From a virus, in IMG/VR virus record IMGVR_UViG_3300035698_034402, positions 1 to 64,000 of that record: a stretch of DNA of 64,000 nt. One strand, written 5' to 3'. A model generated the notes under the pieces. It was not told the origin of the DNA, did no database searches, and saw only the letters and a list, made by a program, of their open reading frames with translations. The translations under genes and the position numbers were made by a program. Of this stretch, positions 9,785 to 33,665 are shown one piece after another (position 1 is the stretch's first letter; the number at the start of each line of letters is the position of its first letter).

Positions 9785-11311
9785 ATGTTCGCTAAATCTT
9801 CTGACCCGTTCGATAAACCGACTCCTCAGGAATCTGAGCGGATTACTAACAAATATGCTTTGAAGGACTTGAGCTTAGCTCTGCTGTTGGGTCTTATGGG
9901 CGGCGCTGGTGGGCGGGCGGGCGTCGGGGTCTACGGTAATGTTGCCCAGAATCTTCGGCGGCGGCGGCAGAAAGAGGAAGATGAGAGGCGCGGGTCTCGT
10001 GAGTTTAGTTTGTTGGCCAAGTCCTCCGCTGAAGAAAAGATGCAACCCCCACGATGGTTTTACCCCAGTATTATTTTGGGTACTCCAGCGGCCGCGTATG
10101 CTGGTTGGGCAGGAACCGGCAAGCTGATGAAGGGCTATCGGAAAATGCGTGATCGCCAGGAACTGGATAAAGCCAAGCAGGAATTTGAGGACGCTTTGGC
10201 CGAGGAGCAGGCGCTGCGATCCAAGTTTGCTGTGGATCTTAATACTTTGTCCGATGCGTGGTCCGCCGGTGATATTGATGAAGAGCTGAAAAAGGAAGCG
10301 AACGGGATAACCGAGGGCGTTGCTCCGTTTCTTTACACTTTAGCGGCGCTAATGGGCTTGGTGGGCACCGGGACGGGCTGGAAGCTGCTTGGGGAATCTT
10401 CAGAGGAAAAGGGTGTTCGAGCGTACCGGGAAGCTGCGCGTCGGCGGCGGGTAGCTCGTCCGGCTAGTCTGGTGGCGCGCCCTCCGGAACTCACTACTGC
10501 GTTGGCTGCGCGTTCTAAGTCTACCTCCGTATCGCCGCAGACGGAGCGGACAAATGAGCCGGAGGTTGAAGAACCTTACGGCGAAAAAGAGGTGAACAAG
10601 ATGGCGGGCTCTAAGCAAGCTAACATACTTTCTGCGCTGCGTAACGTTGGAAAAGGAATGGGGTACGTCGGGAGAGGTGCGGGACGTTTGGGCAAGAGAT
10701 TTGCGTTGCCTGCGGCGGCGGCTGGGGGCGTTGCAACGCCTGCGATGCTTTACGGCACGGAAGCTGGACGTGGCTTCGTAGGGAATAGGACGATGCAGTC
10801 GCTGCAAGAGAATCCCGAGATGGTCATGCAGGGAATCGGCTCGATGATGCAGAAGAACCCTGAGACGATCATGCAGGGAATCGGCTCGGTAATGAAAGAT
10901 AATCCCAAAGAGATTGCCCAGGGAGTGGGCTCTGCGGTACGGCAGCATCCTGGGGAGATTCTGGGCGGGCTTGGTTCTGCAGCTAAAAATTGGATATCCA
11001 ATCTGGATCCCAGCCTGAGGAATGCTTTGATCGCCGCGGTGCTCGGTACGCTAGGCGGTGGGCTCTATGGCGGATTGTCGGGGCGCGGGACCGGCCGGAG
11101 TGCGATGATCGGCATGTTGCTGTCTGCGCTACTAGGCTACGGCGGGACCAAACTGAAACAAAGTCCTTACGCACAAAACATGTGGCAACAGCACGTGGCT
11201 AGACCGGGGCAGGATCTTTGGCGGCGATACGGCCCTACGTTGGGGCAGGGATCTCCTACGTCCCCGCCTGCGTCTCCGCAGGAACCGAAGCCTTTGAGCA
11301 CGATGCCGTAA
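9785..11311 (+). CDS. putative internal/ejection protein with Gly-zipper segments
   Basis: Several GxxxG hydrophobic helices; AKSS x2, KKEA, KMA and KQA motifs. Confidence 0.65.
   Translation: MFAKSSDPFDKPTPQESERITNKYALKDLSLALLLGLMGGAGGRAGVGVYGNVAQNLRRRRQKEEDERRGSREFSLLAKSSAEEKMQPPRWFYPSIILGTPAAAYAGWAGTGKLMKGYRKMRDRQELDKAKQEFEDALAEEQALRSKFAVDLNTLSDAWSAGDIDEELKKEANGITEGVAPFLYTLAALMGLVGTGTGWKLLGESSEEKGVRAYREAARRRRVARPASLVARPPELTTALAARSKSTSVSPQTERTNEPEVEEPYGEKEVNKMAGSKQANILSALRNVGKGMGYVGRGAGRLGKRFALPAAAAGGVATPAMLYGTEAGRGFVGNRTMQSLQENPEMVMQGIGSMMQKNPETIMQGIGSVMKDNPKEIAQGVGSAVRQHPGEILGGLGSAAKNWISNLDPSLRNALIAAVLGTLGGGLYGGLSGRGTGRSAMIGMLLSALLGYGGTKLKQSPYAQNMWQQHVARPGQDLWRRYGPTLGQGSPTSPPASPQEPKPLSTMP
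10811..10990 (+). repeat. 4 x 45-bp degenerate coding tandem repeat
   Basis: NPEMVMQGIGSMMQK / NPETIMQGIGSVMKD / NPKEIAQGVGSAVRQ / HPGEILGGLGSAAKN. Confidence 0.8.
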
Positions 11312-11328
11312 GAGCGCGGCAGTGAGTG

Positions 11329-11553
11329 ATGTTTGAAATGCTAATAGCAAATAAGCAAACAGATTTAGATAACCAGCCGTGCCCTTCGTGTGGGCGATGT
11401 GCTTTGCAGATGACAGGGGTTCGTTACTCTGAACCATTGCAGTTCATTTCTCATTGTAGAAGTTGTGGCGGCGATTCTCCGGGGGAGGGATCACCTGTCA
11501 AAGTATTATCGGTTGAGGAAGCTGTGAAGAAAGGCCTTAAAGTAACCCTCTGA
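11329..11553 (+). CDS. small Zn-ribbon protein
   Basis: CPSC-x21-CRSC; lies immediately upstream of the RNAP gene. Confidence 0.6.
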   Translation: MFEMLIANKQTDLDNQPCPSCGRCALQMTGVRYSEPLQFISHCRSCGGDSPGEGSPVKVLSVEEAVKKGLKVTL

Positions 11554-11577
11554 GTTTAATGCCGCAAGAGCGACATA

Positions 11578-14500
11578 GTGAATGACATTGGACTGCCGAC
11601 AACGACTACTCGCGCCTTCGACGACGTCGATGCCCTGCGTGGCCGGGTGTACGACGACGTACGTTCCGCATACACTGATTTCTACCCCATTGAGAATAAG
11701 CAGCACCGTCTCGAACTGTCCGACGTCTCCTACGATCAAGACGAACCTACAGGTCTGGAGCGCCAGAAGCGAGCTATCCTCAGTGGCCGCAATCTTCATC
11801 GGCCGCTGAGCGGCACTTGGCGCCTGGTCGACAGAGCCACTGAGCAGGTTCTTGACCAGCGGCGCAGTCGCGTCGCTATGGTTCCTCATGTTACTGATCG
11901 GGGTACTATTGTTTATCGGGGGAGCGAGTACAGCGTCGCAAATCAGCTTCGTTTGAAGCCGGGAATGTACACTCGCAAAAAGGAGAACGGGGAGCTGGAA
12001 GGGCATTTTAATATCATGCCCGGCAGCGGGCCGCCGTTCCGAGTCTTTCTGGATCCTACTAGCGGGGTGTTTTATGCCCGGGTGGGCCAATCCAAGTTTC
12101 CATTATACACCGTGCTCAAATCGCTGGGGGTGGCTGATGCACAGATGGTCGATGCTTGGGGCAAGGAGCTATATGCTTCAAATAAGCTGCAAGACAACCC
12201 TAAGCATCTGAATAAGGCCCACGAGAAATTCACCAGCCGCCGGGCGCAGCTGGGCACCGGGGATCGCGAGCCGGGGGACGTAACCAGTTTGGTCGACGAG
12301 CTACGCGAGACTTTTGGCCGTATGGAGCTGGACCCGGAGGTGATGCGCGACACTCTTGGGCATCCTTACGAACGGGTAAATCCGGAAGTCATTTTGCGGA
12401 CTACGCAAAAACTGGTGGACGTATCTCAAGGAAGGTCCGCGGTCGACGACCGGGATTCTATCGCTTACCAGACGGTCTACGGACCCGAGGATCTTTTTGC
12501 AGAAAGAATTCGCAAGGACGCTGGGAGGCTCTCGCGTAACTTGCTCTGGAAGGCCACCTTTCGCAAGTCGTTAGATCCGGTAGTCAACACCGACGCCCGC
12601 ACTCAGCAACTTCAGACGGTGTTGCTCAACTCCGGGTTAGCGATGTGTTTTGACGCGGATACCTGGGTATTAACGTCTGACGGATTTATCCGTTGGCCTG
12701 ATGTTACAAAAAGTACGAAGTTGGCTTGCTATATAAACGGTCAAGTGGAGTTTTATCGCCCGAAGAAGTTGCATATTTATAATTATACAGGGCGGTTGTT
12801 GGCAGGTCGAACAAAGAACTTTAGTTATCTTGTTACTCCCAATCACCGTCTATTTTGCCGCCCCAAAAAGGACGCTGAGTTCCGCTTTGAAACTGCTGCT
12901 GAGGCGCAGGGATATCAGCGATTCCATCGTGTGGCTTTGGGATGTCGGGCGGCGACCGATGCCCGGAAGGAATTTGTGATTCCTGGATGTAAAGAGAATC
13001 GTTGGGGGCATATGTTGCCTAGTCTCAAGTTTTCGATTCGCGATTGGGCGGCATTTCTTGGTTTCTGGTTTGCAGAGGGCAGCGCGCAAAATAACAGCGC
13101 GAAGCGGAACGACGAGTATCGTGTTACAGTTTCTCAGGTTGCGAAGAACAACCCGGATCTGATGGCTACGATCTCTGCTCTTCTGGACCGACTTGGTCTG
13201 CACTGGCGCTATTGTGAGGCAGCTGCCGAATTTATCATTAGAAGTAAAGTTCTCTGGTCAGAACTCCGAAGCTACGGCATTGGATGCCAGAATAAGAGAA
13301 TTCCAAGATATATCATGGAACTGCCACCGGAGCTGCTTCGCGTATTTTGGGAATTTTACATGGCGGGGGATGGCAACGAATATAACGGCTATCTCAAATC
13401 GTCAACATCTTGCGAGGGATTGGCGAAAGATCTGGTCGAATTGTTTGGGTACATTGGCGAGGGTTCTTCAGCAATTTCGGTACGCGTCAAGGGTAATGGC
13501 TGGTCTGATGAGCACGTTGTCAGTTACAGCCCGAAGCGTACTGAAGCATTTGTTAGTTCTTTGGCTATGTCTAGCAATAAGGGCGAACCCGACGCTTACT
13601 CGTCTGTGGATTATTGCGGCAAAGTCTATTGTGCTGAAGTGCCCGGCGGGTTGTTATATATTATGCGGGATGGAAAGACTCATTGGTCTGGAAATAGTCT
13701 TGAGGAATCCAATCCGATGGATATTCTGGATCAATTGTCCAGGATTACCAGGATGGGCGTCGGGGGAATTCCGTCATCCGATTCAATTCCCGATGAATCG
13801 CGGGCAGTGCAGCCGTCGTACGCGAGTTTTATCGATCCGATACGTACCAGCGAGTCCATGAAGGCCGGTGTGGATAACCGCCTTGCCTACAAGACTCTCA
13901 AAGGTTCCGATGGCCAATTGTACACTCCCATGCTCGACAAACAGGGCGTTACGAAGTTGGTGCCCTCTATTGAGGCCTCTCGCCGGGTGATTGCTTTCCC
14001 GGGAGAGGTCGAGCAGGCCAAGAGGGAGGGACGTCTGGTTCGGGCCATGGTTCGCGGGCAGCTGCGCTTTGCGAAGCCCGAAGACGTGGACTACGAGATT
14101 CCTTCCGTTGAGGACATGATGTCCGGCCCGGCGCATCTGGTGCCGTTTTTGTCCGGGGTCAAAGGCCATCGGATGCTGATGGCCACTAAGATGTTCAACC
14201 AGGCGCTAGCATTGAAGGAGCCCGAGGCGCCGTTGGTGCAGACGAGTCGTATCAATCCGGACGATCCGGACGACTCGTTTGAAAAGTGGTTCGGCTCCAA
14301 GATGGGGGTGGTACGAACCAAGCAGGCGGGGGTAGTTAAGTCGGTCGACGAGGACCATATTGCGGTGCAGACGCCGGATGGTGTAACGCGTTACGAACTT
14401 TATCGGAACTTCCCGTTCAATCGCCGCGCATTTCTCCACAGCACTTCTGCAGTGCGGCCGGGGCAGCCGGTGCGGCCCGGCGATCTGCTGGCCAGCTCGA

Positions 14501-17019
14501 ATTTCTCCGACACGGAGGGAACGCTTGCGTTGGGGAAGAACCTGCGGGTGGGCTATCTGCCGTTTCGCGGTTTGACGCACGAGGACGCTTTCGTAATTAG
14601 CGAAGGCGCTGCAAATCGCCTCCTTTCCGAACATATGTATCAGCACGATGTGGATATTATTCCCGGTCAGAAGGTATCTACGCGGTCTTTCCTGGCGAAG
14701 TTTCCCGCAGTTTATCCGCGGAAGATTATCGACCGCTTCGACGATAACGGAGTCATTCGTCCGGGCACCGAGGTGCAGAAGGACGATCCGCTGGTGTTAA
14801 GCATCACTCGCCGCCCGAAGAAGGGGCAGGGGGTGTTGCACAAGATGGCCAAGGATCTGTGGTCGAATACTTCTGAGATCTGGAAGCACGACTCTCCGGG
14901 GGTGGTCACCGACGTGCACGCTGGACCTCGTGGAGTCAACGTGGTGGTCAAGAGCTACCATCCTATGGAGGCGGGTGACAAGCTCACTGCGCGTTTCGGC
15001 AATAAGGGGGTGGTGTCACAGATCGTCCCTGACGATCAAATGCCCCAGGACGCAGAAGGCCGCCCGCTGGAGGTGCTTATGCACCCCTTTGGGGTCATCA
15101 GCCGTGGTAATCCCGCTTCGATTCTGGAGGCTGCGCTCGGCAAGATCGCGGCTAAAACCGGGAAGCCTTACCGGGTGCCGGGTTTTGCGGAGGGCGATCT
15201 GCGGGAATTCGTGGAACGCGAGCTGGCCAGGAACGGCATGTCGGACACCGAGTCGGTTTGGGATCCTGAGCGCCAGGCAAAGATTCCTAATGTCTTCGTA
15301 GGGAACCAGTTCTTTATGAAGCTGCACCATCGGAGCGAGGACAAGCTGGGCGGGCGCGGAGATGAGGCGGGGTATACCGCGGATATGATTCCGGGCAAGC
15401 AGAAGGGGGAAGCTTCCAAACGAATCGGGCAGATGGAGACTACGAGTTTGCTCTCAAGTGGAGCGACTTCTGTTTTACGGGACGCCAAATTAATTCGCGG
15501 TCAACGTAACGACGAGTTCTGGCGGGCTTTCCGTATGGGCTATCCGCCGCCTACCCCTTCTGTGCCCTTTGTCTATCGCAAGTTCATGGATAGTTTGAAA
15601 GCGGCAGGAGTCAATGTGCAGAAGCGCGGCAATTACGTGCACATCATGGCGCTGACCGACAAGGACATCAACAAGCTGTCCCGCGGTGATATCACCCGCC
15701 CGGAGCTGTTGGACTTCGATACGATGGACCCTATTCCTGGCGGGTTGTTCGATTTGGCAAAGACCGGCGGAGCGGGTGGTTTGGGGTGGAGCGCCATTCC
15801 GCTTCATGAGCCTCTTCCTAATCCAGTCATGGAAGAGCCTGTTAGGCGTTTACTGGGGTTGACTAAAGAGAAATTCCGCGAAGTGCTGTCCGGTAAACGG
15901 GAGGTCGGAGAACTGACCGGCGCCCGCGGTATCCAGATGGCGTTGCGCAAGATCAATGTCGACAAGGAGCTGGAGGGGCAGAAAGCCATTCTTCGGTCGG
16001 GAATGAAGAGCAAGCGGGACGATGCGGTCAAGCGTCTACGGGTGCTTGCCATGTTTGAGCAAACCGGTATCAAGCCGGAAGAGCTGATGCTCTCCAAGAT
16101 TCCGGTGTTGCCGCCGCAGTATCGCCCGATTTCCAAGACCCCGGATTTTCGGGTCGTCGCTGATCCGAACTACTTGTACAGGGAGTTGATGCTTGCCAAC
16201 GATAACCTGCGCGACTTACAGGCCGACCTGGGCACTGCAGGGGTCGGCGCTGAGCGGCTTGCGTTGTACGATACTTTCAAAGCTCTGACTGGGCTAAGCG
16301 ATCCGATACAGCCGAAGTTGCAGCAGAAGAACGTTCGCGGCATTCTGGCGCATCTGCTGGGGCTGCGGTCTTCGCCGAAGGCTTCTACATTCCAACGTAA
16401 GCTCATCGGTACTAATACGGATCTAGTAGGCCGGGCGGTGATTACTCCGAATCCCTCGTTGGACATGGACCAGGTAGGCTTACCGGAGAGCAAGGCTTGG
16501 GTGCTTTATCGGCCGTTCATCGTAAGGAACCTGATGAGGCGGGGCGTAGCTGCGACGACCGCGGCGCACATGGTCTCTGAACAGGATCCCCGTGCGAAGG
16601 ATGCTTTGCTGCGAGAGATGGAACATCGGCCGGTGATCGTCAATCGGGCGCCTACGTTGCATCGGTACGGGATCATGGCGGCGTTTCCGGTGTTGACCAA
16701 GGGGAACACTTTGCAGGTGTCGCCGTTGACAATTGGAGGCTACGGTGGCGATTTTGACGGAGATGCGGAGCAGTTCCATGTGCCGGTCAGCGATGATGCA
16801 GTGGCCGAGGCCAAGGATAAGCTGCTCCCCAGTCGCAACTTAACCGACGTGCGGTTTTTTGACGTACACTACGTCCCCGGTCAAGAATTCTTACAGGGAC
16901 TTTTCAACGCTACTGAGCCGAGTTCCAAGCCGACGCGGACGTTTCGTAATCATCGGGACGTCGAACGGGCTTATCGAGCAGGCAAGATTGGCGCGAACGA
17001 CCGGGTGAAGACCATCTGA
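11578..17019 (+). CDS. multisubunit RNA polymerase beta fused to N-terminal part of beta', intein-containing
   Basis: Beta motifs GKNLRVGY, EDAFVIS, GDKL..RFGNKGVV, FMKLHH, RIGQME; beta' motifs IPVLPP..RP, GRAVI, NRAPTLHR and catalytic DFDGD. Confidence 0.92.
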   Translation: MNDIGLPTTTTRAFDDVDALRGRVYDDVRSAYTDFYPIENKQHRLELSDVSYDQDEPTGLERQKRAILSGRNLHRPLSGTWRLVDRATEQVLDQRRSRVAMVPHVTDRGTIVYRGSEYSVANQLRLKPGMYTRKKENGELEGHFNIMPGSGPPFRVFLDPTSGVFYARVGQSKFPLYTVLKSLGVADAQMVDAWGKELYASNKLQDNPKHLNKAHEKFTSRRAQLGTGDREPGDVTSLVDELRETFGRMELDPEVMRDTLGHPYERVNPEVILRTTQKLVDVSQGRSAVDDRDSIAYQTVYGPEDLFAERIRKDAGRLSRNLLWKATFRKSLDPVVNTDARTQQLQTVLLNSGLAMCFDADTWVLTSDGFIRWPDVTKSTKLACYINGQVEFYRPKKLHIYNYTGRLLAGRTKNFSYLVTPNHRLFCRPKKDAEFRFETAAEAQGYQRFHRVALGCRAATDARKEFVIPGCKENRWGHMLPSLKFSIRDWAAFLGFWFAEGSAQNNSAKRNDEYRVTVSQVAKNNPDLMATISALLDRLGLHWRYCEAAAEFIIRSKVLWSELRSYGIGCQNKRIPRYIMELPPELLRVFWEFYMAGDGNEYNGYLKSSTSCEGLAKDLVELFGYIGEGSSAISVRVKGNGWSDEHVVSYSPKRTEAFVSSLAMSSNKGEPDAYSSVDYCGKVYCAEVPGGLLYIMRDGKTHWSGNSLEESNPMDILDQLSRITRMGVGGIPSSDSIPDESRAVQPSYASFIDPIRTSESMKAGVDNRLAYKTLKGSDGQLYTPMLDKQGVTKLVPSIEASRRVIAFPGEVEQAKREGRLVRAMVRGQLRFAKPEDVDYEIPSVEDMMSGPAHLVPFLSGVKGHRMLMATKMFNQALALKEPEAPLVQTSRINPDDPDDSFEKWFGSKMGVVRTKQAGVVKSVDEDHIAVQTPDGVTRYELYRNFPFNRRAFLHSTSAVRPGQPVRPGDLLASSNFSDTEGTLALGKNLRVGYLPFRGLTHEDAFVISEGAANRLLSEHMYQHDVDIIPGQKVSTRSFLAKFPAVYPRKIIDRFDDNGVIRPGTEVQKDDPLVLSITRRPKKGQGVLHKMAKDLWSNTSEIWKHDSPGVVTDVHAGPRGVNVVVKSYHPMEAGDKLTARFGNKGVVSQIVPDDQMPQDAEGRPLEVLMHPFGVISRGNPASILEAALGKIAAKTGKPYRVPGFAEGDLREFVERELARNGMSDTESVWDPERQAKIPNVFVGNQFFMKLHHRSEDKLGGRGDEAGYTADMIPGKQKGEASKRIGQMETTSLLSSGATSVLRDAKLIRGQRNDEFWRAFRMGYPPPTPSVPFVYRKFMDSLKAAGVNVQKRGNYVHIMALTDKDINKLSRGDITRPELLDFDTMDPIPGGLFDLAKTGGAGGLGWSAIPLHEPLPNPVMEEPVRRLLGLTKEKFREVLSGKREVGELTGARGIQMALRKINVDKELEGQKAILRSGMKSKRDDAVKRLRVLAMFEQTGIKPEELMLSKIPVLPPQYRPISKTPDFRVVADPNYLYRELMLANDNLRDLQADLGTAGVGAERLALYDTFKALTGLSDPIQPKLQQKNVRGILAHLLGLRSSPKASTFQRKLIGTNTDLVGRAVITPNPSLDMDQVGLPESKAWVLYRPFIVRNLMRRGVAATTAAHMVSEQDPRAKDALLREMEHRPVIVNRAPTLHRYGIMAAFPVLTKGNTLQVSPLTIGGYGGDFDGDAEQFHVPVSDDAVAEAKDKLLPSRNLTDVRFFDVHYVPGQEFLQGLFNATEPSSKPTRTFRNHRDVERAYRAGKIGANDRVKTI
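12646..13695 (+). mobile_element. intein with LAGLIDADG endonuclease in RNAP beta
   Basis: Begins CFDADT; LVTPNH block B; FLGFWFAEG and FYMAGDG; ends VYCAEVP...HWSGN with +1 Ser; removal restores the beta segment SGLAM|SLEESNP; visibly lower GC. Confidence 0.9.
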
Positions 17020-17187
17020 GCGACAGGATAATAGAGATGATTGGCCTGGCGGAGAGCCGGTTCAGACCAGACTGGCAGATCGCTAAATATCTGCCTGGCT
17101 GGTAAAATGTGAATAAGTGGAAACTTCGTATCGTAGACGGATTTCTTGACAAGCTCATGTTTCATTGCAGAAAATAGGAGGTCAGAG

Positions 17188-17385
17188 ATGGGTACTGAGA
17201 CCGCACAAAGCCAGTTAGGCCTGGATGAGGTCCGAGGAAACTGGATCGATCCCAATATCGAACCTGGGTTGCTTGATGCAAACGACCCCGAGGCGGTCTC
17301 CGGGCGATCCGCAAGCGATTTTCGATCTAACAAGGACGCCTGGCCCGGCGGGGAGCCGTTTCAAACTAGGCTTGAAGACCGTTAG
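17188..17385 (+). CDS. small acidic hypothetical protein
   Basis: AGGAGG RBS before ATG 17188. Confidence 0.65.
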   Translation: MGTETAQSQLGLDEVRGNWIDPNIEPGLLDANDPEAVSGRSASDFRSNKDAWPGGEPFQTRLEDR

Positions 17386-17414
17386 GCGGGGGTATTCGAC
17401 GAAGGAGAAAATTC

Positions 17415-17729
17415 ATGGCAACGTGGCAAGATGATATGGGGATTGATGCGGTCGATGGGCAGATCCAGGGTTCCACGTCGGATCACGCCAAGTGCGATAC
17501 TAAGTATCCGGCTTCATACCGCGGCGATATCGAGGATGCGCCGCGTGTGTCCGAAGAGTACACGGACCAAGCTGAGCCGCATCCCCAGATAGGGGATACG
17601 GATATGGGTAACGCTACCGGCGGCACTACCGACTGCTCGCGGGTTCATGACACCGAGGTGGCTCACGACGGCTATGGTGGCCGCGGGTCGGGCAAGAAGG
17701 ATGTGGACCCTGCGCTCGACGATCGCTAG
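17415..17729 (+). CDS. acidic Asp/Gly-rich hypothetical protein
   Basis: AAGGAG RBS. Confidence 0.7.
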   Translation: MATWQDDMGIDAVDGQIQGSTSDHAKCDTKYPASYRGDIEDAPRVSEEYTDQAEPHPQIGDTDMGNATGGTTDCSRVHDTEVAHDGYGGRGSGKKDVDPALDDR

Positions 17730-17740
17730 GAGAATAGCTT

Positions 17741-18124
17741 ATGAACACAGCGCTTAAGGTAGTTAAGAGAGCGCAGAGTCTTGGTACGGCGCTTGAGGTA
17801 ATCAAGCGGGCGCGGGATATTAGTGCGCAACGGCGAACCATTCCTGAGAAGTCCGCTTCGCCTGTTAAAGCTGCGGCTGCGTCTGAGGAGCCGAAGTATA
17901 CTTTGCCGGAGGCGGCGGCGCTTCTTGCGAAGGCAGCGCAGGCCATTGTGAAGGCTGCGGCGGAGAAAGCTGTGCAAACGACCAAGGAGGTCGGGACAGA
18001 ACTAAAGGCAGCCGAATATCGTATCCCGCCTATCGAAGTCAACGTGCCGGATCCGGTAGATTACGACAAGCTTCGGCAAGTGGTCCGTGAGGAGGTTGGG
18101 CTGGTCAAAGGAGACGGCAAGTGA
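17741..18124 (+). CDS. KxA-rich head-associated protein
   Basis: AGGAG RBS; KRA x2, KSA, KAA x4. Confidence 0.7.
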   Translation: MNTALKVVKRAQSLGTALEVIKRARDISAQRRTIPEKSASPVKAAAASEEPKYTLPEAAALLAKAAQAIVKAAAEKAVQTTKEVGTELKAAEYRIPPIEVNVPDPVDYDKLRQVVREEVGLVKGDGK

Positions 18125-18840
18125 ATTCATTTAACCCTCGACTAGCGGCGGTTGCCTTAGCCAGAGTGGACCAGTTTGAAAAGCCCGGGTTTGTTCCGGC
18201 GGATGCTGGGGGCAGTATGCCGGTGGACGCAGGCCCTCCAGGAGCCGCTCCAGGCGGGATTCCCCCTGAATTAGCCGCGGCGATGGGAGGAGGCGGAGGC
18301 GGAGGCGGAGGCGGGGCTCCCCCGGGGTTGGATGTGGCAATGGGGGGAGGCGGGGGCGAGATACCCCCCGAACTGGCTGCGGCAATAGGGGGAGGCGGAC
18401 CTTCTCCAGGCGGCGCACCTCCTCCGGGAGGCGGACCCCCTCCAGGCGCCGACATTGGCGAGCAGCTGGCCAGCGTCAACAGTAAGCTCGATCAGCTAAT
18501 CGGGACGCTCCAGGGGTTTCTGATGGGGCAAGAATCGGCGGGCGGCGCTAAGGGTAGCGGAGGCGGAGGTGGTCAGAAGGAATTGCTTGGGCTCGTTCAG
18601 CAGATGGCTACGCAAATGGGCATTTCGTCTCCGGATGCTATGGGCGGCATGGGCGCAGGTGGCGCAGGAGCTGCGGCGCCTTTGGGGGCCGGGATGCCGG
18701 GAGCGCCTGCTGCTCCAGCGGGTCCGTTGGCTCCAGCAATGCCAGGCATGACGTTATCGGCGAGTGACGCGAGAACGCCGCCGAATAAACATAGCCCGGC
18801 TGCGCGGGTTAGCAGGTTGCTTACAGATCTGGCGGTATAA
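18121..18840 (+). CDS. Gly/Pro-rich low-complexity head-associated protein
   Basis: GTGA coupling; poly-Gly tracts; IPPELAAA x2; short coiled coil. Confidence 0.7.
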   Translation: MNSFNPRLAAVALARVDQFEKPGFVPADAGGSMPVDAGPPGAAPGGIPPELAAAMGGGGGGGGGGAPPGLDVAMGGGGGEIPPELAAAIGGGGPSPGGAPPPGGGPPPGADIGEQLASVNSKLDQLIGTLQGFLMGQESAGGAKGSGGGGGQKELLGLVQQMATQMGISSPDAMGGMGAGGAGAAAPLGAGMPGAPAAPAGPLAPAMPGMTLSASDARTPPNKHSPAARVSRLLTDLAV

Positions 18841-19064
18841 TGCGCGTCGTGCTCAAAGGGGAAAAACTTAGCGCTATTCCTGTAGAAAACCAGGGGGTTG
18901 GGCAGGTGGCGGTGTACGACGACGGCGGAGTGTTGCTAGCGCTGATGTGGAAGCGCGATGACGGGACAATTGCTCTCACCCGTGCGGGAGAGGGCGATTT
19001 TGAGCGGTTGACGCAGCAAATGGGTCTGTCCAAGCGTGTAGCTGCCCGCTGTGTCACGTTGTAA
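18840..19064 (+). CDS. hypothetical protein
   Basis: TAATG coupling; 74 aa. Confidence 0.7.
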   Translation: MRVVLKGEKLSAIPVENQGVGQVAVYDDGGVLLALMWKRDDGTIALTRAGEGDFERLTQQMGLSKRVAARCVTL

Positions 19065-19077
19065 GAGGAGAAGTTCA

Positions 19078-19137
19078 ATGTGTCCGTTCAGTATTATCGG
19101 AATTCTGTTGGCGTTTTTCGCGCTGTTCAGTTTCTAA
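19078..19137 (+). CDS. 19-aa hydrophobic micropeptide
   Basis: MCPFSIIGILLAFFALFSF; AGGAGAAGTT RBS. Confidence 0.55.
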   Translation: MCPFSIIGILLAFFALFSF

Positions 19138-19152
19138 ATAGGAGAAGTTGGT

Positions 19153-19236
19153 ATGGGTTTGCTCGAAGCTATCGTAGCTTTCGTGACGTTGATGCTGGGG
19201 TTTTTTAATCTCAGCGACTTCACGTTCCCGTTCTGA
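19153..19236 (+). CDS. 27-aa hydrophobic micropeptide
   Basis: MGLLEAIVAFVTLMLGFFNLSDFTFPF; same AGGAGAAGTT RBS as the previous ORF. Confidence 0.55.
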   Translation: MGLLEAIVAFVTLMLGFFNLSDFTFPF

Positions 19237-19253
19237 ACACGCTGATCGAAGGA

Positions 19254-19294
19254 TAGCAGAGGGGGCGCACCGACTGGTCGCGCCCCGTTTGCTA
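19254..19294 (+). terminator. GC-rich hairpin (terminator or attenuator) before beta'-C
   Basis: TAGCAGAGGGGGCGC...GCGCCCCGTTTGCTA stem; poor U tail. Confidence 0.5.
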
Positions 19295-19310
19295 CTCCCA
19301 GGAGAGCGCC

Positions 19311-21158
19311 GTGGATACGACGGTTGGCCAGCTGCTTATTAACGAAGCTTTGCCTCCCGATCTGCGGGACTACAACCGCAGATTGGACAAGGCGGGCCTG
19401 AAAGATCTGCTCCGCGAGGTCATGCGGCGGTATCCGGAGCGCTACAAGGAAATTGCCCATCGGCTGGAACAATTGGGCGCAGATTTTGCCACGTCCACGG
19501 GCTCCAGTTTTTCGCTGAAGGATCTACGTCCTTCCCAAACAAAACGACGTATCGTAGCGGAAATCGAACGTCAGCTCAGCCGGACAACTAATCACCCTAC
19601 CTGGTCGGATGAAACGAAGGATCGCAAGATTATCGAGCTGTTGGGCTCTCGCATGGATGAGCTGCAGAAGGGCACCCACGCCGAGGGGCTGGCAGAAGGA
19701 AATAGCTTTTCGCGAATGATACGATCAGGCGCTCGGGGTAACCCGGCGAACTTGTCTTCCCTTCGCGGGGCTGATCTGCTTGTACTCGATCATCGGGATC
19801 GTCCGATCCCGATCCCGATTACCCACAGTTTCAGCGAGGGGCTCAGCCCGGCGGAGTATTTTGCCCAAGCTTATGGGACTCGTAAGGGCGTGATCGGGGC
19901 CAAGCTGAGTACCGCGAGTGCTGGGTTTCTCAATAAACAGCTGGTTAATACAGCCGGACAATTGCTCGTTACTGACGAGGAGCCCCTCGAAGGCACGGGT
20001 TTGCCTGTGGATATCGACGACCCGGACAACGAGGGCTCGGTTTTAGCTCGGGGCTACGGGGAATTCCCGGCGGGCACCATTCTGACCCCTTCTAGTGTCC
20101 GAGCGCTTCAACGTCTGGGGCACGACGAGATTCTGGTGCATTCGCCAATCTCAGCGGGTGGCGCAGGGGTTCCTCGTTTGGCGGCTGGGATACGGGAGCG
20201 AGGTGGGCTATCCCCGGTCGGAGATAATATCGGGATTGCTGCGGCACAGGCAGTGGGCGAGGTGCTTTCGCAAAGCCAGCTGTCTAGCAAGCATTCTGCG
20301 GGAACCGGAGGCGCTCCTTCGGCCACGCTCAGCGGATTCCAGGCTATCAATCAGTTGGTGCAGGTGCCGCGTACGTTCCAGAACGCTGCTACAATATCCC
20401 GGTTGGACGGCATCGTGGAACGGGTCGAGGATGCGCCGCAGGGCGGCAAGTACGTCTGGGTGAACGACGAGAAGCATTATGTCCACTCCGGAATTGAAAT
20501 CAGAGTCAAGATCGGTGATCGAATTTCTGCGGGCGATATGGTATCCGCTGGGGTGCCTAACCCCTCGGAAGTGGTTAAATACAAACACATCGGGGAGGGT
20601 CGTCGATATCTGGTTCGACAGCTTCGGGACACTTTGGAGTCTCAGGGGGTTGGAATTCACCGGCGGAACCTTGAGTTGCTCGCCCGAGGACTGGTCAATC
20701 ATGTCCGCGTTGTAGACCCCGACGGCGTCGCAGGTGCGTTGCCTGATGATATTCTCCCCTATGATGAGTTGGTTCGGCAGTATCAGCCCCGTTTTGGGAA
20801 CCTCTCTCTGACGCCGGGGCGTGCGCGTAACAAATATCTTGAGAGACCGGCGCTGCACTACTCCATTGGCACCCGGCTGACTCCGGAGGTTATCGCTACG
20901 CTCAAGAAACACGGAGTAGGGGAGGTTGTTGTACACGAGGATCCTCCTCCGTTCGAGCCCCATATGGTGCGGGCGATGGAGAGCACATTGCACGATCCGG
21001 ACTTCTTTCGGCGACTGGGTGGCTTTTACATCGGGAAAGGGTTCATGGACGCGGCGCAGCGGGGAGGCAAATCAGAAATCCACGGTCAGAACTGGGGGCA
21101 CTCTTTGGCGCAGGGGCAGGAGTTTGGTAAGCAATTGGCTACTAAGGGTGTGTATTAA
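19311..21158 (+). CDS. RNA polymerase beta' C-terminal part
   Basis: TTVGQLL, SGARG, F.EGLS..EYF...G.RKG bridge-helix region, GI.AAQA.GE...Q...H trigger-loop region, H.ELLAR. Confidence 0.9.
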   Translation: MDTTVGQLLINEALPPDLRDYNRRLDKAGLKDLLREVMRRYPERYKEIAHRLEQLGADFATSTGSSFSLKDLRPSQTKRRIVAEIERQLSRTTNHPTWSDETKDRKIIELLGSRMDELQKGTHAEGLAEGNSFSRMIRSGARGNPANLSSLRGADLLVLDHRDRPIPIPITHSFSEGLSPAEYFAQAYGTRKGVIGAKLSTASAGFLNKQLVNTAGQLLVTDEEPLEGTGLPVDIDDPDNEGSVLARGYGEFPAGTILTPSSVRALQRLGHDEILVHSPISAGGAGVPRLAAGIRERGGLSPVGDNIGIAAAQAVGEVLSQSQLSSKHSAGTGGAPSATLSGFQAINQLVQVPRTFQNAATISRLDGIVERVEDAPQGGKYVWVNDEKHYVHSGIEIRVKIGDRISAGDMVSAGVPNPSEVVKYKHIGEGRRYLVRQLRDTLESQGVGIHRRNLELLARGLVNHVRVVDPDGVAGALPDDILPYDELVRQYQPRFGNLSLTPGRARNKYLERPALHYSIGTRLTPEVIATLKKHGVGEVVVHEDPPPFEPHMVRAMESTLHDPDFFRRLGGFYIGKGFMDAAQRGGKSEIHGQNWGHSLAQGQEFGKQLATKGVY

Positions 21159-21169
21159 AACTAATGGTT

Positions 21170-21199
21170 TTGAGGGGTCCGAGGTCGGCTTAGTATACT
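21170..21199 (+). promoter_or_regulatory. sigma70-type promoter upstream of the endonuclease
   Basis: TTGAGG-18-TATACT in the intergenic gap. Confidence 0.45.
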
Positions 21200-21262
21200 G
21201 ACGAGTATGTCTGGGTGGTTCAACAGGGGAGTTCTCCAGGACGATTTTTGACAGGGTAGCTA

Positions 21263-22405
21263 GTGCTTACAGCTGAAACAGCTATTTTGCTTGATGATTT
21301 TAGCCAATGTCCTGCGGGGGCTGTTCGTATCGGCGACCGTGTGATGACCGCGGACGAGAGCAGGCAGCTGCAATCGCAGCCGGTAGTGGGGCTTCGTAGT
21401 GCTTCCGCGGATTGCTATCATGCGGAGTTTTCCGAGCAGAACCGAAGGAAAGAGCGAAAGACTTATGTAGTTGCTGCGTCTCCAGAAACGGAGATTTTGT
21501 CTTTATACGATCCGGGATCGCGGGAGATGTCGGGGCGAACACCCAGTTTTAATGCCTTTGTTGCGGGACCTCGTTCGGCGCAGTTCCGTGGCGTGTTGCA
21601 TGGCGGTCTGTATGACGATGCCTCCATGCCTAGCGACTCTCGCGATTTATTGTTGGGAATGTTATTGGGCGACGGCTATTACGCGCCTAGTAGCCAGTCT
21701 GGAGTGTATCTTTCATGTTACGATCCTACGTTGATAGACGATACCCGGGAGTATTTGCACGGCTTGGGGCTTGTGGCACGGAGTACTGCAGCGCGCCCGG
21801 AGTTATATCGCCTGGTGCCTTTCGGACGAAGTGAGGGGCGTTATTACGCATTTGCTAGTAACGATCCGGCACTGGCTATGCTTAGAGATTTGGGCGTTGA
21901 GCGCAAGCTTGCCCACGAAAAGGTGATTCCCGAGGTAGGCTATAGCTGGTCGAATGCGTCCGTGGCTCGTTTGCTATCCGGGCTGCTAGTGACTGACGGA
22001 TCAATTTTCTCCCCGTGTGACAGAAGTCACGGCGCGGTGTTTGTTTCGTTTGCTTCAACATCGGAACGTATGGTTCACCAGATCGCGGAATTGCTTAAGA
22101 CGCGATTTGGCGTTCACGATTGTCGATTTGTCTCTCATAGCGGCGAGAGAAACAACGCTCTGCATACGTTGAGAGTTATGTCGGCTTACTCGGTGCGGAG
22201 ATTGCTTCGCACGATACCGCTATTCGGCGTAAAGAAATTGCGGGCGGCACAACTTATGCGTTCGTGGACAACGAAGAAAGAACGTCTGTACGGCTGTTTG
22301 AAGCGCGGACCGGTAGTGCATCGCGGGAGCGAAGAGTGCGTAAGCATTCAGATCCCAGCGGAATCGGTGGTGCTCGGCTGCGGACTTATTGCGAGGGTTG
22401 ATTAA
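21263..22405 (+). CDS. free-standing intein-derived LAGLIDADG homing endonuclease
   Basis: LLGMLLGDG and LSGLLVTDG; intein-like ends (LTAETAILLDD...IGDRVM; CVSIQI...GLIA) but no Cys1 or terminal HN; in-frame TAG two codons upstream. Confidence 0.75.
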   Translation: MLTAETAILLDDFSQCPAGAVRIGDRVMTADESRQLQSQPVVGLRSASADCYHAEFSEQNRRKERKTYVVAASPETEILSLYDPGSREMSGRTPSFNAFVAGPRSAQFRGVLHGGLYDDASMPSDSRDLLLGMLLGDGYYAPSSQSGVYLSCYDPTLIDDTREYLHGLGLVARSTAARPELYRLVPFGRSEGRYYAFASNDPALAMLRDLGVERKLAHEKVIPEVGYSWSNASVARLLSGLLVTDGSIFSPCDRSHGAVFVSFASTSERMVHQIAELLKTRFGVHDCRFVSHSGERNNALHTLRVMSAYSVRRLLRTIPLFGVKKLRAAQLMRSWTTKKERLYGCLKRGPVVHRGSEECVSIQIPAESVVLGCGLIARVD

Positions 22406-32726: not shown

Positions 32727-33665
32727 ATGCCTATTACCACGGACCCTACGGCTCGTATTACCGGCGCTCAGTTCTGGGATCATCTTTCCAGTGACAATCC
32801 ACAGATTGTCAAGAACGCCGAGGACGCGGTTAACGCCTTTATCCGGGTGAAGATGCGCGAAGACGGTTTTACCCGGAAGATCATTCCCCCTCTTCCACTA
32901 TCCAACGATGATCTGGATCGGCAGGTCGATACCGACAAGCCGGTCATCGTGCTGGATAAGGAGCCGAATTCTCCGGCTGCGGCCAGCGTGCCGTATGCGA
33001 CTCAGCCGTTTGCGCGGTACATCAAGGCGCCGCGTTATCGGGTGATGTTCGACCGGATTGTCACTCCTAAGTTCATGAAGGACGTCGGCGAGCTGCGGAC
33101 GTACGACATGGATATCCGGCAGATCCTGAGCGACAACGCCGTGAAGGACATGCTGGCGGAGGAGGACGGTAAGTTCATCGCGACGGTGAACACCTTGCTG
33201 GGGGCAGTTGATGTAGCTGTGCCCGAGACCGGCGTGGCGCAGTACCAGACGATTGCTGGCGGGATCACGCGTGATTCGGTCAACGATGCGCTGATGATCC
33301 TTCCAGGGACGCCTGCCCATTTGGAGGCGGCCACGGTCCTGGTGAACAATATCACCATCAAGAACGTGCAGAAGTGGGGCTATGACGAGATCGGCGGAGA
33401 ACTGTCGGAGGAGATCCTGCGACAAGGTTTCGCCGAGCGCAACCTGCTGAATGCACGCTGGATCGTCACTATCAAGACGCGTCTGGTCGCCAATAACCAG
33501 ATGTACTTTTTCGCAGAACCAAAATTTTTAGGCAAATTTTTTGTTCTCGAAGATACGACGATGCATATTAAACGCGAAGCGTTCATGTTGGAATTTTTCG
33601 CGTACGAAAGCATTGGGGCGGCTATTGCGAATGTGGCGGGCATTGGCCGCGCGGTCTACGTCTAG
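32727..33665 (+). CDS. putative major capsid protein (HK97 fold)
   Basis: 312 aa; position after protease/scaffold/decoration; strong codon bias; C-terminal FFAYESIGAAI.N..G pattern; strong downstream hairpin. Confidence 0.7.
   Translation: MPITTDPTARITGAQFWDHLSSDNPQIVKNAEDAVNAFIRVKMREDGFTRKIIPPLPLSNDDLDRQVDTDKPVIVLDKEPNSPAAASVPYATQPFARYIKAPRYRVMFDRIVTPKFMKDVGELRTYDMDIRQILSDNAVKDMLAEEDGKFIATVNTLLGAVDVAVPETGVAQYQTIAGGITRDSVNDALMILPGTPAHLEAATVLVNNITIKNVQKWGYDEIGGELSEEILRQGFAERNLLNARWIVTIKTRLVANNQMYFFAEPKFLGKFFVLEDTTMHIKREAFMLEFFAYESIGAAIANVAGIGRAVYV

Follow-up and report, generated by a model that had tools for sequence, protein, structure and literature searches.

A two-chain phage RNA polymerase in which β is joined to the N-terminal half of β′

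The window of an uncultured salt-lake phage analyzed here (64,000 nt; positions 1 to 64,000 of IMG/VR virus record IMGVR_UViG_3300035698_034402) encodes a bacterial-type multisubunit RNA polymerase (RNAP) in two chains: a long chain, interrupted by an intein, in which β runs into the N-terminal half of β′, and a separate chain carrying the C-terminal half of β′. This two-chain layout is the standard of a phage lineage with hundreds of protein clusters, of which the window is one more member. It is a real variant of phage multisubunit polymerases, new in layout, and no description of it was found in the main texts and passages searched of the phage RNAP literature. On balance, we consider it probable that this is a self-contained, sigma-dependent bacterial-type RNAP, in which the β–β′ tether fulfills part of the role of α, and which is packaged in the virion and injected.

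The Long Chain and Its β/β′ Junction

The gene for the long chain (11578–17019, + strand), identified from the ORF list, its translation, Pfam, and a match to gp206 of Salmonella phage Arash, encodes a precursor of 1813 aa that comprises the β N-part, the intein, the β C-part, and the β′ N-half. The β N-terminal extein (aa 1–356; 11578–12645, +) represents the lobe/protrusion part with the SGLAM fork-region motif at its end; residues 30–369 of the β chain of PDB 8gzg_C correspond to aa 18–356 (family profile vs. PDB, E 2e-16). The β C-terminal extein (aa 707–1351; 13696–15630, +), recognized by Pfam Rpb2_6 and hhalign, includes the β double-psi barrel and the C-terminal clamp helix, whose last residues are GVNVQKRG. 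In the β′ N-half (aa 1352–1813; 15631–17016, +), delimited by hhalign and an alignment to PDB β′ residues 160–549, the clamp helices remain and the zinc ribbon has been lost. Pfam places Rpb2_6 at aa 918–1260 (E 6e-41) and Rpb1_2 at aa 1675–1746 (E 7e-22), with Rpb2_3 (aa 708–771; 19.2 bits, cut-off 21 bits) and Rpb1_1 (aa 1473–1549; 36.9 bits, cut-off 39.7 bits) falling below threshold.

Two double-psi barrels, the DxDxD triad, GDK/GNKG, the bridge helix, and the trigger loop are all present in the enzyme. The β motifs GDK...GNKG are located at 14974–15009 and the catalytic DFDGD at 16750–16764, 84 aa before the end of the chain; the catalytic motif reads GGDFDGD, not NADFDGD. The enzyme matches bacterial β and β′ in the PDB with E 1e-57 and 1e-49, respectively. 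An AF2 model of aa 707–1813 (pLDDT 77.1, pTM 0.63) has a confidently modeled β/β′ junction, and bacterial β chains are its best Foldseek matches (E 1e-40).

The initial annotation had placed both double-psi barrels in one chain, with the junction near 15630, and Pfam and profile alignments to E. coli rpoB/rpoC agree. By profile–profile alignment (hhalign), E. coli β residues 1209–1340 (of 1342) correspond to aa 1224–1350, and E. coli β′ residues 26–289 to aa 1360–1554; the junction is thus at aa ~1351 (nt ~15630), and the passage from β to β′ is direct (~9 residues, without a linker). Because β runs directly into β′ through DFDGD, both active-site barrels are tethered in one polypeptide.

Misassembly had been named as one way in which this reading could fail, and it is rejected: contigs from public salt-lake runs (4 runs, 4 studies) bridge the junction and, likewise, both intein boundaries, all contig pieces being 99+% identical to the window with 0 differences across the junction and intein ends, at a low depth of 1–4 and with one run that may be the source sample of the window. 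That an assembly error or a frameshift created the fusion, or that the gene is a pseudogene decaying after a mobile element broke it, has almost no probability: the window is known from a single metagenomic contig, and the public-run depth is modest, but the bridging contigs are independent, the junction is covalent in every assessable locus of the lineage and in two cultured phages, all 1813 codons are open, catalytic residues are retained, and the insertion sits in its site with single-residue precision.

An Intein in the β Fork Region

The initial annotation overlooked a 350-aa insertion at aa 357–706 (12646–13695, +), delimited by its coordinates, PDB phmmer, the relatives' alignment, and contigs. 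This is a class-1 intein with a LAGLIDADG homing endonuclease, predicted to splice. It begins with Cys (C357) and ends ...HWSGN (N706), followed by Ser+1 (S707), and it holds two LAGLIDADG-like motifs as well as a TPNH block, which we take to be block B (TxxH) of class-1 inteins. The PI-PkoII structure 2cw7 matches it (PDB phmmer, E 4.6e-6), as do the V-ATPase inteins 7qsu/7qss, whereas LAGLIDADG_3 of Pfam stays below threshold (18.7 bits). The intein columns are empty in 10 of 10 aligned relatives, and the insertion is exact in a conserved site of the host protein; 4–5 of 150 representatives have an insertion at this site, likewise with CF/YD...HWSGN|S ends. The residue before the terminal Asn is Gly rather than the class-1 penultimate His, but this HWSGN ending is common to most related inteins of the lineage and is therefore probably typical of the group. 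Once the intein is spliced out, β would be continuous, and the mature long chain would be ~1463 aa.

The β′ C-Terminal Half and the Split Site

The β′ C-half (19311–21158, +), identified by Pfam and a PDB β′ alignment, is a chain of 615 aa with a GTG start and an AGGAG-like site 7 nt upstream. As initially annotated, it carries the bridge helix (19851–19946) and trigger loop (20232–20303) and starts at TTVG, its N-terminus being VDTTVG. Rpb1_5 matches with E 3e-22, and Rpb1_4 reaches 22.1 bits (cut-off 24.8 bits). The chain corresponds to E. coli β′ 571–951; in E. coli β′ numbering, chain 1 ends at ~551 and chain 2 starts at ~570.

The two genes are separated by 2291 nt in the window (623–8444 nt across 56 loci). 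Five to six small non-overlapping ORFs occupy this gap (17146–19064, +; ORF list and tblastn), fewer than the approximately seven first counted. Each is matched in 0–4 loci (tblastn, 75+ loci); they are common to the closest relatives only and form no conserved part of the enzyme.

A Large Lineage With a Conserved Layout

A junction-spanning query retrieves 907 protein clusters (50% identity) at E<=1e-30, and at least 482 IMG/VR stretches belong to the lineage. Among the best 150 of the 907, 148 stretches span the junction as read from the match table, and 116 of 150 proteins carry both barrels. Across 75 loci, of which 18 are not assessable for this trait, the end of β and the start of β′ share a single ORF in 57/57; β through DFDGD is in a single ORF in 51/55 assessable loci, and β′N and β′C are in separate ORFs in 56/57. 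In each of the five complete relatives, PF00562 and PF00623 match exactly once each, in a shared frame; the complete relatives thus have one polymerase set only.

A phylogeny with other polymerases had been suggested as a check on the initial annotation. In a 73-row β′C tree, built by a quick method with 12 loci left out, the 64 rows of the family group together in a single clade (SH-aLRT 100) and the window, inside it, is placed beside L004. The lineage is associated with varied hosts (Salmonella, Vibrio, salt-lake bacteria), at 27–71% identity, and is very large yet barely described.

Sigma Factor, α, ω, and Zinc Sites

A Sigma70-family factor of 240 aa is encoded among the tail genes (55670–56392, +). 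It is a homologue of the Arash sigma factor gp10 (E 3e-17) and is matched by Sigma70_r3 (28 bits vs. a cut-off of 25.3), and a family profile of this sigma matches SigA regions 2–4 (192–377; E 2.6e-20); Pfam sigma regions 2 and 4 give no match at E 0.1 on the window's record. Sigma70_r3 is also present in 5 of 5 complete relatives. These similarities suggest that the 55670–56392 product is likely the specificity subunit of the polymerase, in keeping with the compact bacterial-like enzyme with its own sigma that had been proposed at the outset.

The statement that α and ω are unrecognizable in the window extends to its entire 85-kb record, which has no match to PF01000, PF01193, or PF01192, with the qualification that the record is 42% complete and a second polymerase, α, or ω could be encoded in the missing part. 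Among 13 records, α PF01193 is found in 0 and ω PF01192 in 0 above the cut-off (one 16-bit match), while positive controls match in 14/14 genomes; these searches are Pfam-based, and divergent analogues would escape them. Both β′ zinc sites are missing: at the position of the E. coli Zn ribbon, hhalign opens a gap of 32 columns, and there are 0 cysteines in long-chain aa 1351–1480 and 0 in the whole 615-aa chain.

Arash, D69, and the Question of Packaging

The genome of Salmonella phage Arash (OQ632216; PMC10585845) encodes the same two genes, gp206 (1525 aa) and gp216 (606 aa), and the sigma factor gp10; Vibrio phage D69 (OZ195729) has a two-gene layout identical to that of the window. Arash gp206 has 33% identity over 1171 aa to the long chain, and gp216 29% to the β′ C-half. 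In both phages, as in the window, the RNAP genes are just past the portal gene and ahead of the capsid genes, and one polymerase set is encoded together with a partner sigma factor but no α or ω. Unlike the window, both lack the intein. Arash has an SNF2 helicase gene after β′C that has no homologue in the window's record, and the window has more cargo-like genes than Arash/D69 between portal and polymerase. The layout is thus half described already, because it is standard in a lineage with published genomes: the Arash and D69 genes are public and the Arash products have been detected by mass spectrometry (MS), but in the available Arash text these are labeled simply as β and β′ (PMC10585845).

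In the MS data on Arash particle preparations, Gp206 has 3516 spectra (the highest of all proteins), Gp216 has 1210, and the sigma factor Gp10 has 467, and the particle list also contains ribonucleotide reductases, primase, and kinases (available text of PMC10585845). The enzyme is probably packaged in the virion: its genes are between the portal gene (1764–3752), upstream, and the major capsid gene (32727–33665), downstream, and the Arash orthologues and sigma factor are rich in spectra, which makes a location in the head probable by analogy. The Arash list, however, includes non-structural enzymes, and its authors caution that proteins abundant during infection may co-purify with particles (PMC10585845, in the part available).

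Comparison With Other Known Polymerases

Multimeric RNAP-encoding Caudovirales (mReC; Weinheimer and Aylward, 2020; PMC7481178), in the available text, are uncultured Caudovirales of up to >200 kb with β/β′ genes among structural genes, branching apart from cellular enzymes, as in the lineage described here. Overlap between the lineage and the mReC clade is probable. Two mReC representatives derive from metagenome 3300017989, which also yields a family member that reads FNADFDGD within an open frame of 1403 aa or more, and N-A-D-x-D-G-D occurs in 45 of 80 further lineage loci, which would pass the mReC filter; the GGDFDGD of the window would fail it (NADxDGD). In addition, mReC have 8 capsid matches to PF07068, compared to 0/12 for lineage relatives in a search without a positive control. 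The words "split," "intein," "sigma," and "virion" are absent from the mReC main text, and "fused" is used for crAssphage alone (PMC7481178).

According to the passages available, polymerases of the phiKZ/AR9 type are phage-encoded and without α or ω, with one set in the virion (PMC7598289, PMC7824862). The initial annotation held that phiKZ enzymes are split differently, which is correct for β, cut into 2–3 pieces and not joined to β′ (PMC7598289, PMC7824862), in contrast to the window's β that would be continuous after splicing; it does not hold for β′, whose split is reported at the cyanobacterial site, after the catalytic barrel, like that of the window (PMC7598289). As described in the same sources, phages of this type have two paralogous sets, whereas the window lineage has one in 5/5 complete relatives, and they use gp68/gp226 instead of a sigma70-type factor, which the window has. 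Their sequences are far more divergent from the window enzyme than those of bacterial-like phage families (PHROG: E 1e-7 to 1e-23 for phiKZ-type families vs. 1e-55 to 1e-61).

The split of β′ near the cyanobacterial one, already recognized in the initial annotation, is confirmed. Cyanobacteria and plastids divide β′ into gamma/RpoC1 and RpoC2 in the same inter-domain stretch as the window, and RpoC2 chains begin at residues ~11–22 of P0002, with 8gzg_Z, 8syi_Z, and 8h3v_B (from their residues 5–12) starting at P0002 residues 19–22; gamma extends ~64 residues past the end of the phage β′N. The two splits are some 10–30 residues apart and not provably at the same peptide bond, and cyanobacterial and plastid β is a separate subunit, unlike that of the window. 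In Helicobacter and Wolbachia, rpoBC joins the β C-terminus covalently to the β′ N-terminus with the whole of β′ in the chain, and these cellular housekeeping enzymes keep α, ω, and the zinc sites. Such a fusion has a complete β′, whereas in the window β′C is encoded 2291 nt further downstream by its own gene.

Outside the lineage, the phage enzymes closest in the β′C tree are RNAPs of the RP13/EP_H11/RHph type, from phages with T-hypermodified DNA (SH-aLRT 99, with long branches). RP13 ORF150 residue 26 aligns to β′C residue 25, so the two chains start within approximately one residue of each other. However, β′N of RP13 is a gene of its own (517 aa), not joined to β, β′ of RHph_Y65 is unsplit (1127 aa), and in this type the RNAP genes are among DNA-metabolism genes.

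Proposed Enzyme and Alternatives

In the reading that we prefer, chain 1 would be made as the 1813-aa precursor, from which the class-1 intein must leave the β fork region, yielding a protein of ~1463 aa in which the β C-terminus leads straight into β′ through the DFDGD barrel. Chain 2 (615 aa), with the bridge helix, trigger loop, and remaining β′, would join non-covalently at the same place between domains at which β′ is divided in cyanobacteria, plastids, and phiKZ-type phages. The sigma70-type factor (55670–56392) most likely guides the polymerase to the promoters of the phage, and the covalent β–β′ tether may do part of what the α dimer does in assembly. The enzyme would be carried in the head, injected, and start transcription independently of the host, the same single enzyme being used later.

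Alternatively, the same enzyme might not be packaged but made during infection for middle and late genes, with host RNAP, perhaps redirected, reading the early genes, and its location in the head module would reflect late co-expression only. We consider this somewhat unlikely. The RNAP genes belong to a late-type operon and share their strand with the structural genes, and the available Arash MS list is rich in plainly non-structural enzymes, for which co-purification is offered by its authors; yet Gp206 tops that list, the sigma factor Gp10 is there as well (PMC10585845), the complete relatives have a single polymerase set, and a late-made enzyme without an earlier source better fits packaging. 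Less probable still is a hybrid enzyme, with both chains assembling on the host α dimer, perhaps with host ω, and the tether not replacing that platform. This predicts the missing phage α and ω, as found, and the enzyme is much nearer to bacterial β and β′ (E 1e-57 and 1e-49) than to phiKZ-type families; against it, phiKZ/AR9-type enzymes work without α and without stable binding of host subunits, according to the passages available (PMC7598289, PMC13282480), and very different hosts would make a conserved interface with host α less likely.

Beyond the preferred reading of a packaged two-chain enzyme, we tentatively propose a minimal holoenzyme: two chains and a genuine sigma70-family factor, with the tether substituting for the α2 platform, ω and both zinc sites dispensable, and the whole loaded into the capsid and injected. 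This stronger proposal is quite possible, though doubtful as yet; if true, a phage multisubunit polymerase would for the first time be seen to use a true sigma factor, which would contradict the rule given in the available passages of reviews, by which no large phage encodes both an RNAP and a sigma factor. Multisubunit RNAPs are assumed to need an α-type platform. The studied exceptions (phiKZ and AR9) have diverged very far and work without sigma; the enzyme proposed here, which remains close to those of bacteria, would be a third solution, in which the barrels are tethered, the mobile β′ half is split off, α, ω, and zinc are dropped, and sigma is kept. It bears on the minimal assembly requirements of a cellular-type polymerase, on the passage of a roughly 230-kDa enzyme into and out of a capsid, and on whether a phage sigma serves a phage core. 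Because the lineage is large and one member is cultured on Salmonella, the questions of assembly, capsid, and sigma are directly testable.

Inteins Across the Lineage

Between 1 and 4 intein-size insertions are present in 119 of 150 lineage representatives, an exceptional intein hot spot. Studies of intein homing should profit from this lineage, which can also supply inteins.

Two Chains Carry the Catalytic Elements of One RNA Polymerase

The window is phage-like, with genes on one strand and a G+C content of about 57%; its parent IMG/VR virus record has 84,988 bases and is rated 42% complete (CheckV), and the public runs that contain the window sequence are salt-lake metagenomes, with no RNA run among those listed. 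The long RNA polymerase (RNAP) chain is encoded at 11578-17019 (1813 aa) and matches the Pfam domains Rpb2_3 (aa 708-771; 19.2 bits, below the 21-bit cut-off), Rpb2_6 (aa 918-1260; E 6e-41), Rpb1_1 (aa 1473-1549; 36.9 bits, below the 39.7-bit cut-off), and Rpb1_2 (aa 1675-1746; E 7e-22). The short chain (beta'C) is encoded at 19311-21158 (615 aa, N-terminus VDTTVG) and matches Rpb1_4 (22.1 bits, below the 24.8-bit cut-off) and Rpb1_5 (E 3e-22). Among PDB sequences, long-chain aa 707-1345 align to residues 518-1181 of the bacterial beta chain 7l7b_C (E 1e-57) and aa 1428-1811 to Escherichia coli beta' 160-549 (E 7e-49), while residues 2-344 of the short chain align to E. coli beta' 571-951, bridge helix included. 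The beta part of the long chain is complete, because its first 356 residues match beta residues 30-369 of 8gzg_C by family profile (E 2e-16). No match in the phage collection was obtained when the 9.6-kb region was searched by megablast. Domains and alignments thus bear out the initial annotation, which had described a fused beta::beta'N chain and a separate beta'C gene. The layout is real, conserved, and functional-looking; at the level of sequence, every catalytic element is shown to be present, divided between two chains, and conserved through a very large lineage.

The initial annotation had raised the possibility that the fusion is a misassembly. Four public salt-lake runs, each from a different study, supplied contigs that were placed on 11400-21300, at low depth and with patchy cover; the contigs are short, and several bins of this 9.9-kb stretch are uncovered. 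All contig pieces are 99+% identical to the window, with no differences, gaps, or joints. The beta/beta' junction is bridged by contig X2 record 12 (15452-15704), the intein start by X1 record 1 (12597-12857), and the intein end by X1 record 2 (13409-14041) and X2 record 11 (13550-13803). These contigs uphold the layout against misassembly, although one of the four runs may be the source of the window's record.

A Linker-Free Junction and Loss of the Zinc Sites

To map the junction, a family alignment of 18 sequences (A2) was aligned, profile to profile, with rpoB and rpoC of E. coli (NC_000913.3); these profile searches took the place of a search of PDB sequences with the 230-aa junction segment alone, which had no hit at E<=0.01. 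Window aa 1224-1350 correspond to beta residues 1209-1340 (of 1342), and aa 1360-1554 to beta' residues 26-289. The last 2 beta and first 25 beta' residues are replaced by about nine residues, GNYVHIMAL (nt 15628-15654), which fits the junction near 15630 that had been read from the sequence alone. Beta and beta' are joined, as judged from this alignment, without a linker. The CxC...CxxC zinc ribbon of E. coli is the exact place of a 32-column gap in the family alignment, and cysteines are absent both from long-chain aa 1351-1480 and from the whole 615-aa chain; therefore, both beta' zinc sites have been lost. The clamp helices are retained, with E. coli beta' 263-289 aligning to DPNYLYRELMLANDNLRDL. 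Modelled with AlphaFold2, aa 707-1813 reach a mean pLDDT of 77.1 and a pTM of 0.63, with junction block means of 65-93; the top Foldseek matches of the model are bacterial beta chains (E about 1e-40).

Conservation and Phylogeny of the Layout

In a protein search of the phage collection, only 4 of 37 records cover at least 80% of the short chain, all at below 60% identity: the Salmonella phage Arash and the Vibrio phages D69, D181, and D148. The gene order in Arash is portal, a small gene, gp206 (1525 aa, annotated as "beta"), nine small genes, gp216 (606 aa), a helicase, and structural genes; D69 keeps this order, with polymerase genes of 1527 and 609 aa. The window's long chain shares 33% identity with gp206 across 1171 aa, in an alignment that passes over the intein. 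A scan of IMG/VR with the beta'C alignment recovered 73 loci, on contigs of up to 224 kb, and a further scan gave at least 585 stretches, at least 482 of which encode relatives. A 337-aa query spanning the junction matched 1883 representatives at E<=0.001 in a library of 1.84 billion proteins (1102 at <=1e-10 and 907 at <=1e-30). Among the best 150 of these 1883, the junction is covered by 148 of the matching stretches, as read from the table, and both double-psi barrels are present in 116 proteins, the others being fragments.

Wiring was scored at 75 loci, namely Arash, D69, and the 73 from the beta'C scan, with four segments of the window as blastp queries against stop-to-stop frames. The end of beta and the start of beta' lie in one frame at 57 loci and in separate frames at none (18 not assessable); the end of beta and the DFDGD end of beta'N share a frame at 51 and are separate at four (20 not assessable); the end of beta'N and the start of beta'C are in separate frames at 56 and in one frame at a single locus (18 not assessable). 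The gap between the two RNAP genes is 623-8444 nt, with a median of about 1.9 kb (56 loci), and is 2291 nt in the window. At the four loci with a separate DFDGD end (L045, L049, L065, and L074), the beta frame still holds the first 90-120 residues of beta', so that the extra cut lies within beta'N; in this nested subclade, which also includes L053 and L055, a gene of ~380 aa bears the rest of beta'N up to DFDGD. Locus L075 (8897-10870) has an alternative wiring, with beta'N and beta'C in one frame. At L070 (5092-11461), which falls outside the thresholds for assessment, beta is cut mid-way and the remaining beta, beta'N, and beta'C share one frame; given the 50-nt overlap between its two frames, this wiring may reflect a frameshift or a sequencing error.

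A phylogeny, which the initial annotation had called for, was computed by a quick maximum-likelihood method from the beta'C region in 73 rows: the window, 63 family loci, and 9 others (the phages RP13, EP_H11, and RHph_Y65, E. coli, and five MAG beta' sequences, four from Bacillota and one from an unclassified bacterium). The tree excludes twelve loci that have inteins or match only in part. The 64 family rows, window included, form one clade (SH-aLRT 100), in which the window adjoins the near, intein-free relative L004 (70% identity) and the loci with the extra split group together in a single nested clade (SH-aLRT 99). Because the fused state occurs in both main branches, the fusion is most simply ancestral to the lineage. 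RP13-type phages make up the sister group, with a program warning about long branches there. RP13 itself, a Ralstonia phage whose group has hypermodified thymidine, likewise has beta' in two genes (L079 4657-6210 and 8926-10386), and residue 26 of its ORF150 aligns to residue 25 of the window's beta'C, an alignment by which the beta' split may be older than the beta-beta' fusion. A scan of genome contigs yielded only Bacillota rpoC genes (26-29% identity) and no family member; thus, it offers no clue to the host of the lineage.

Relation to Described Phage Polymerases

According to passages of a review of jumbo-phage polymerases, the beta' split of phiKZ-type phages coincides with the cyanobacterial one, and these phages have no sigma homologues (PMC7598289); a 2026 review similarly states, in part of its text, that RNAP-encoding jumbo phages are without sigma and that RNAP-less ones encode it (PMC13282480). 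The Arash-type lineage breaks this RNAP-or-sigma rule. It also differs from phiKZ-type phages in its number of polymerase sets. PF00562 and PF00623 each match in exactly one place in each of five complete relatives, namely Arash, D69, and three records with a completeness rating of 100%, and both places lie within the same open frame of 1459-1546 aa; therefore, each relative carries one polymerase set.

Weinheimer and Aylward (2020; PMC7481178) reported, in the portion of that paper drawn on here, 97 uncultured "multimeric RNAP-encoding Caudovirales" (mReC) contigs on which beta and beta' are encoded among structural genes. Metagenome 3300017989, the origin of two of the three named mReC representatives, also contains a family member (FNADFDGD in an open frame of 1403 aa or more), and 45 of 80 further loci would pass the mReC NADxDGD filter. 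For these two reasons the lineage is probably mReC at least in part. PF07068, the mReC capsid marker, matched in 0 of 12 relatives, and the control likewise matched nowhere.

The initial annotation had allowed that the architecture might already be described for this clade. The words "split", "intein", "sigma", and "virion" are absent from the main text of PMC7481178; word finds in the available text of PMC7598289, PMC13282480, and PMC7481178 gave nothing relevant to a fused layout; the sections of Iyer et al. (2021; PMC7824862) that were covered do not describe it; and the literature searched yielded neither a description of a phage polymerase with fused beta::beta'N nor one of its inteins. 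As far as searched, the layout is thus undescribed in print and a new variant among multisubunit polymerases. The window adds one member to a large lineage of which genomes and one particle proteome are already public. The one feature that the window does not share with every member is an intein, placed at a site that is less often used.

Inteins in the Polymerase Genes

This intein occupies nt 12646-13695 (aa 357-706, 350 aa) and was overlooked in the initial annotation, whose reading of the chain otherwise stood as regards the fused layout. It begins with Cys, contains TPNH and two LAGLIDADG-like motifs, and ends in HWSGN, followed by Ser707; the penultimate residue is Gly, not His, as in most related inteins of the lineage. 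It resembles the intein endonuclease PI-PkoII (2cw7, E 4.6e-6) as well as V-ATPase inteins, and LAGLIDADG_3 matches at a sub-threshold 18.7 bits (Pfam). In a MAFFT alignment, its columns are filled in 0 of 10 intein-free relatives and the flanks are gapless (LLNSGLAM / SLEESNPMD in the window, LLDSGLGM-PLEEVNPID in the nearest relative). Profile alignment places the site in the GSSQLSQ/FMDQ-like fork region of beta, which we take to be rifampicin cluster I. Judging from these motifs, the intein would splice out of the long-chain precursor, and the mature chain would have about 1463 aa.

Intein-size insertions occur at many positions of both RNAP genes across the 75 loci. In coordinates of the intein-free L004 protein, long-chain positions include 390, 411 (7 loci), 787 (4), 827, 905 (2), and 931-933 (2), as well as 1381, which falls inside NADFDG; in beta'C, insertions lie near 204 (5) and 318-350 (7 rows). 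Among the best 150 of the 1883 library representatives, 119 have one to four insertions of at least 120 aa (66, 36, 13, and 4 proteins with 1, 2, 3, and 4, respectively) and 31 have none; their length has a median of 1936 aa and a maximum of 3089 aa. The window's site (about position 356-361) is filled in 5 of these 150, and four of the five occupants have C[FY]D...HWS.N|S ends as in the window. The RNAP genes of the lineage are an intein hot spot, with at least 15 insertion sites (loci L004-L076 and representatives P0003-P0152). Insertion inside the catalytic NADFDG was seen in L038, and near that position in 25-39 of the best 150 of 1883 representatives.

Directly after beta'C, the window encodes a free-standing LAGLIDADG ORF (21263-22405, 380 aa; LAGLIDADG_3, Pfam E 9.5e-15). 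It shares 25-39% identity with inteins within the beta'C genes of L032, L035, L029, and L048 and shows no relationship to the intein in the window's beta (BLASTP E 0.2). By this similarity, it looks like an intein that has departed from its host gene.

Sigma Factor, Proposed Working, and Packaging

The initial annotation had proposed an enzyme with its own sigma and recognized neither alpha nor omega. The sigma gene is confirmed: a homologue of Arash sigma gp10 lies at 55706-56272 (E 3e-17), inside ORF 55670-56392 (240 aa), which matches Sigma70_r3 (28 bits vs. a 25.3 cut-off) and, together with four homologues, aligns to SigA chains from region 2 to region 4.2 (E 2.6e-20; 8h3v_G 192-377). Sigma70_r3 is found in all five complete relatives, and Sigma70_r2 and r4 gave nothing at E<=0.1 in the window's record (Pfam). 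The absence of alpha and omega also holds among the records searched. Alpha PF01193 was found in 0 of 13 records, including the window's own 42%-complete record, PF01000 in 0 of 1 (the window's), and omega PF01192 above cut-off in 0 of 13, each with 14 of 14 control genomes matched; the sole sub-cut-off omega match (16.4 bits) is to a 334-aa frame of one record, G008.

In bacteria, the clamp helices are the main docking site of sigma. We propose that the core would comprise the tethered beta-beta'N chain and the beta'C chain, that the phage sigma would confer promoter specificity, acting with the retained clamp helices, and that the beta-beta' tether might make up for the absent alpha platform. 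Across 11200-21400, scans for sigma70-type promoters (7 vs. 5.1+-2.1 in shuffles) and terminators (8 vs. 10.1+-2.8) were not above expectation from shuffled sequence.

Mapping with Arash proteins places the RNAP genes between the portal (1764-3752) and major capsid (32727-33665) genes. In the Arash particle proteome, as given in part of PMC10585845, Gp206 has 3516 spectra (the top of all), Gp216 1210, and sigma Gp10 467; the same particle list holds reductases, primase, and kinases, for which its authors allow co-purification. Because of this gene position and proteome, packaging of the polymerase in the virion is suggested, and we lean slightly towards it.

The small genes between the RNAP genes were rejected as conserved extra subunits, each being present in only 0-4 loci, and those of the window are common only to its nearest relatives; the ORF directly upstream of beta'C was likewise rejected, since it belongs to many unrelated clusters. 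A 74-aa ORF upstream of beta'C (18840-19064) is conserved in L004, L019, L006, and L005, was not seen beyond the L004-type subclade, and has an L004 homologue in a cluster of 11 loci, where it immediately precedes beta'C; this ORF possibly encodes a small accessory protein. In Arash, beta'C is directly followed by a SNF2-family helicase (gp217, L001 13803-15221) that appears on the particle MS list; a search of the window's 85-kb record for a homologue found none. Iyer et al. (PMC7824862) mention that phiKZ-type phages show a similar linkage of helicase and polymerase. The head module of the window also includes a 561-aa ORF (7655-9340) in which Pfam finds a LigD 3'-phosphoesterase domain (E 2.7e-14) and, weakly, a ligase OB domain; taken with the polymerase, this ORF suggests that the region from portal to capsid encodes a set of enzymes acting on nucleic acids.
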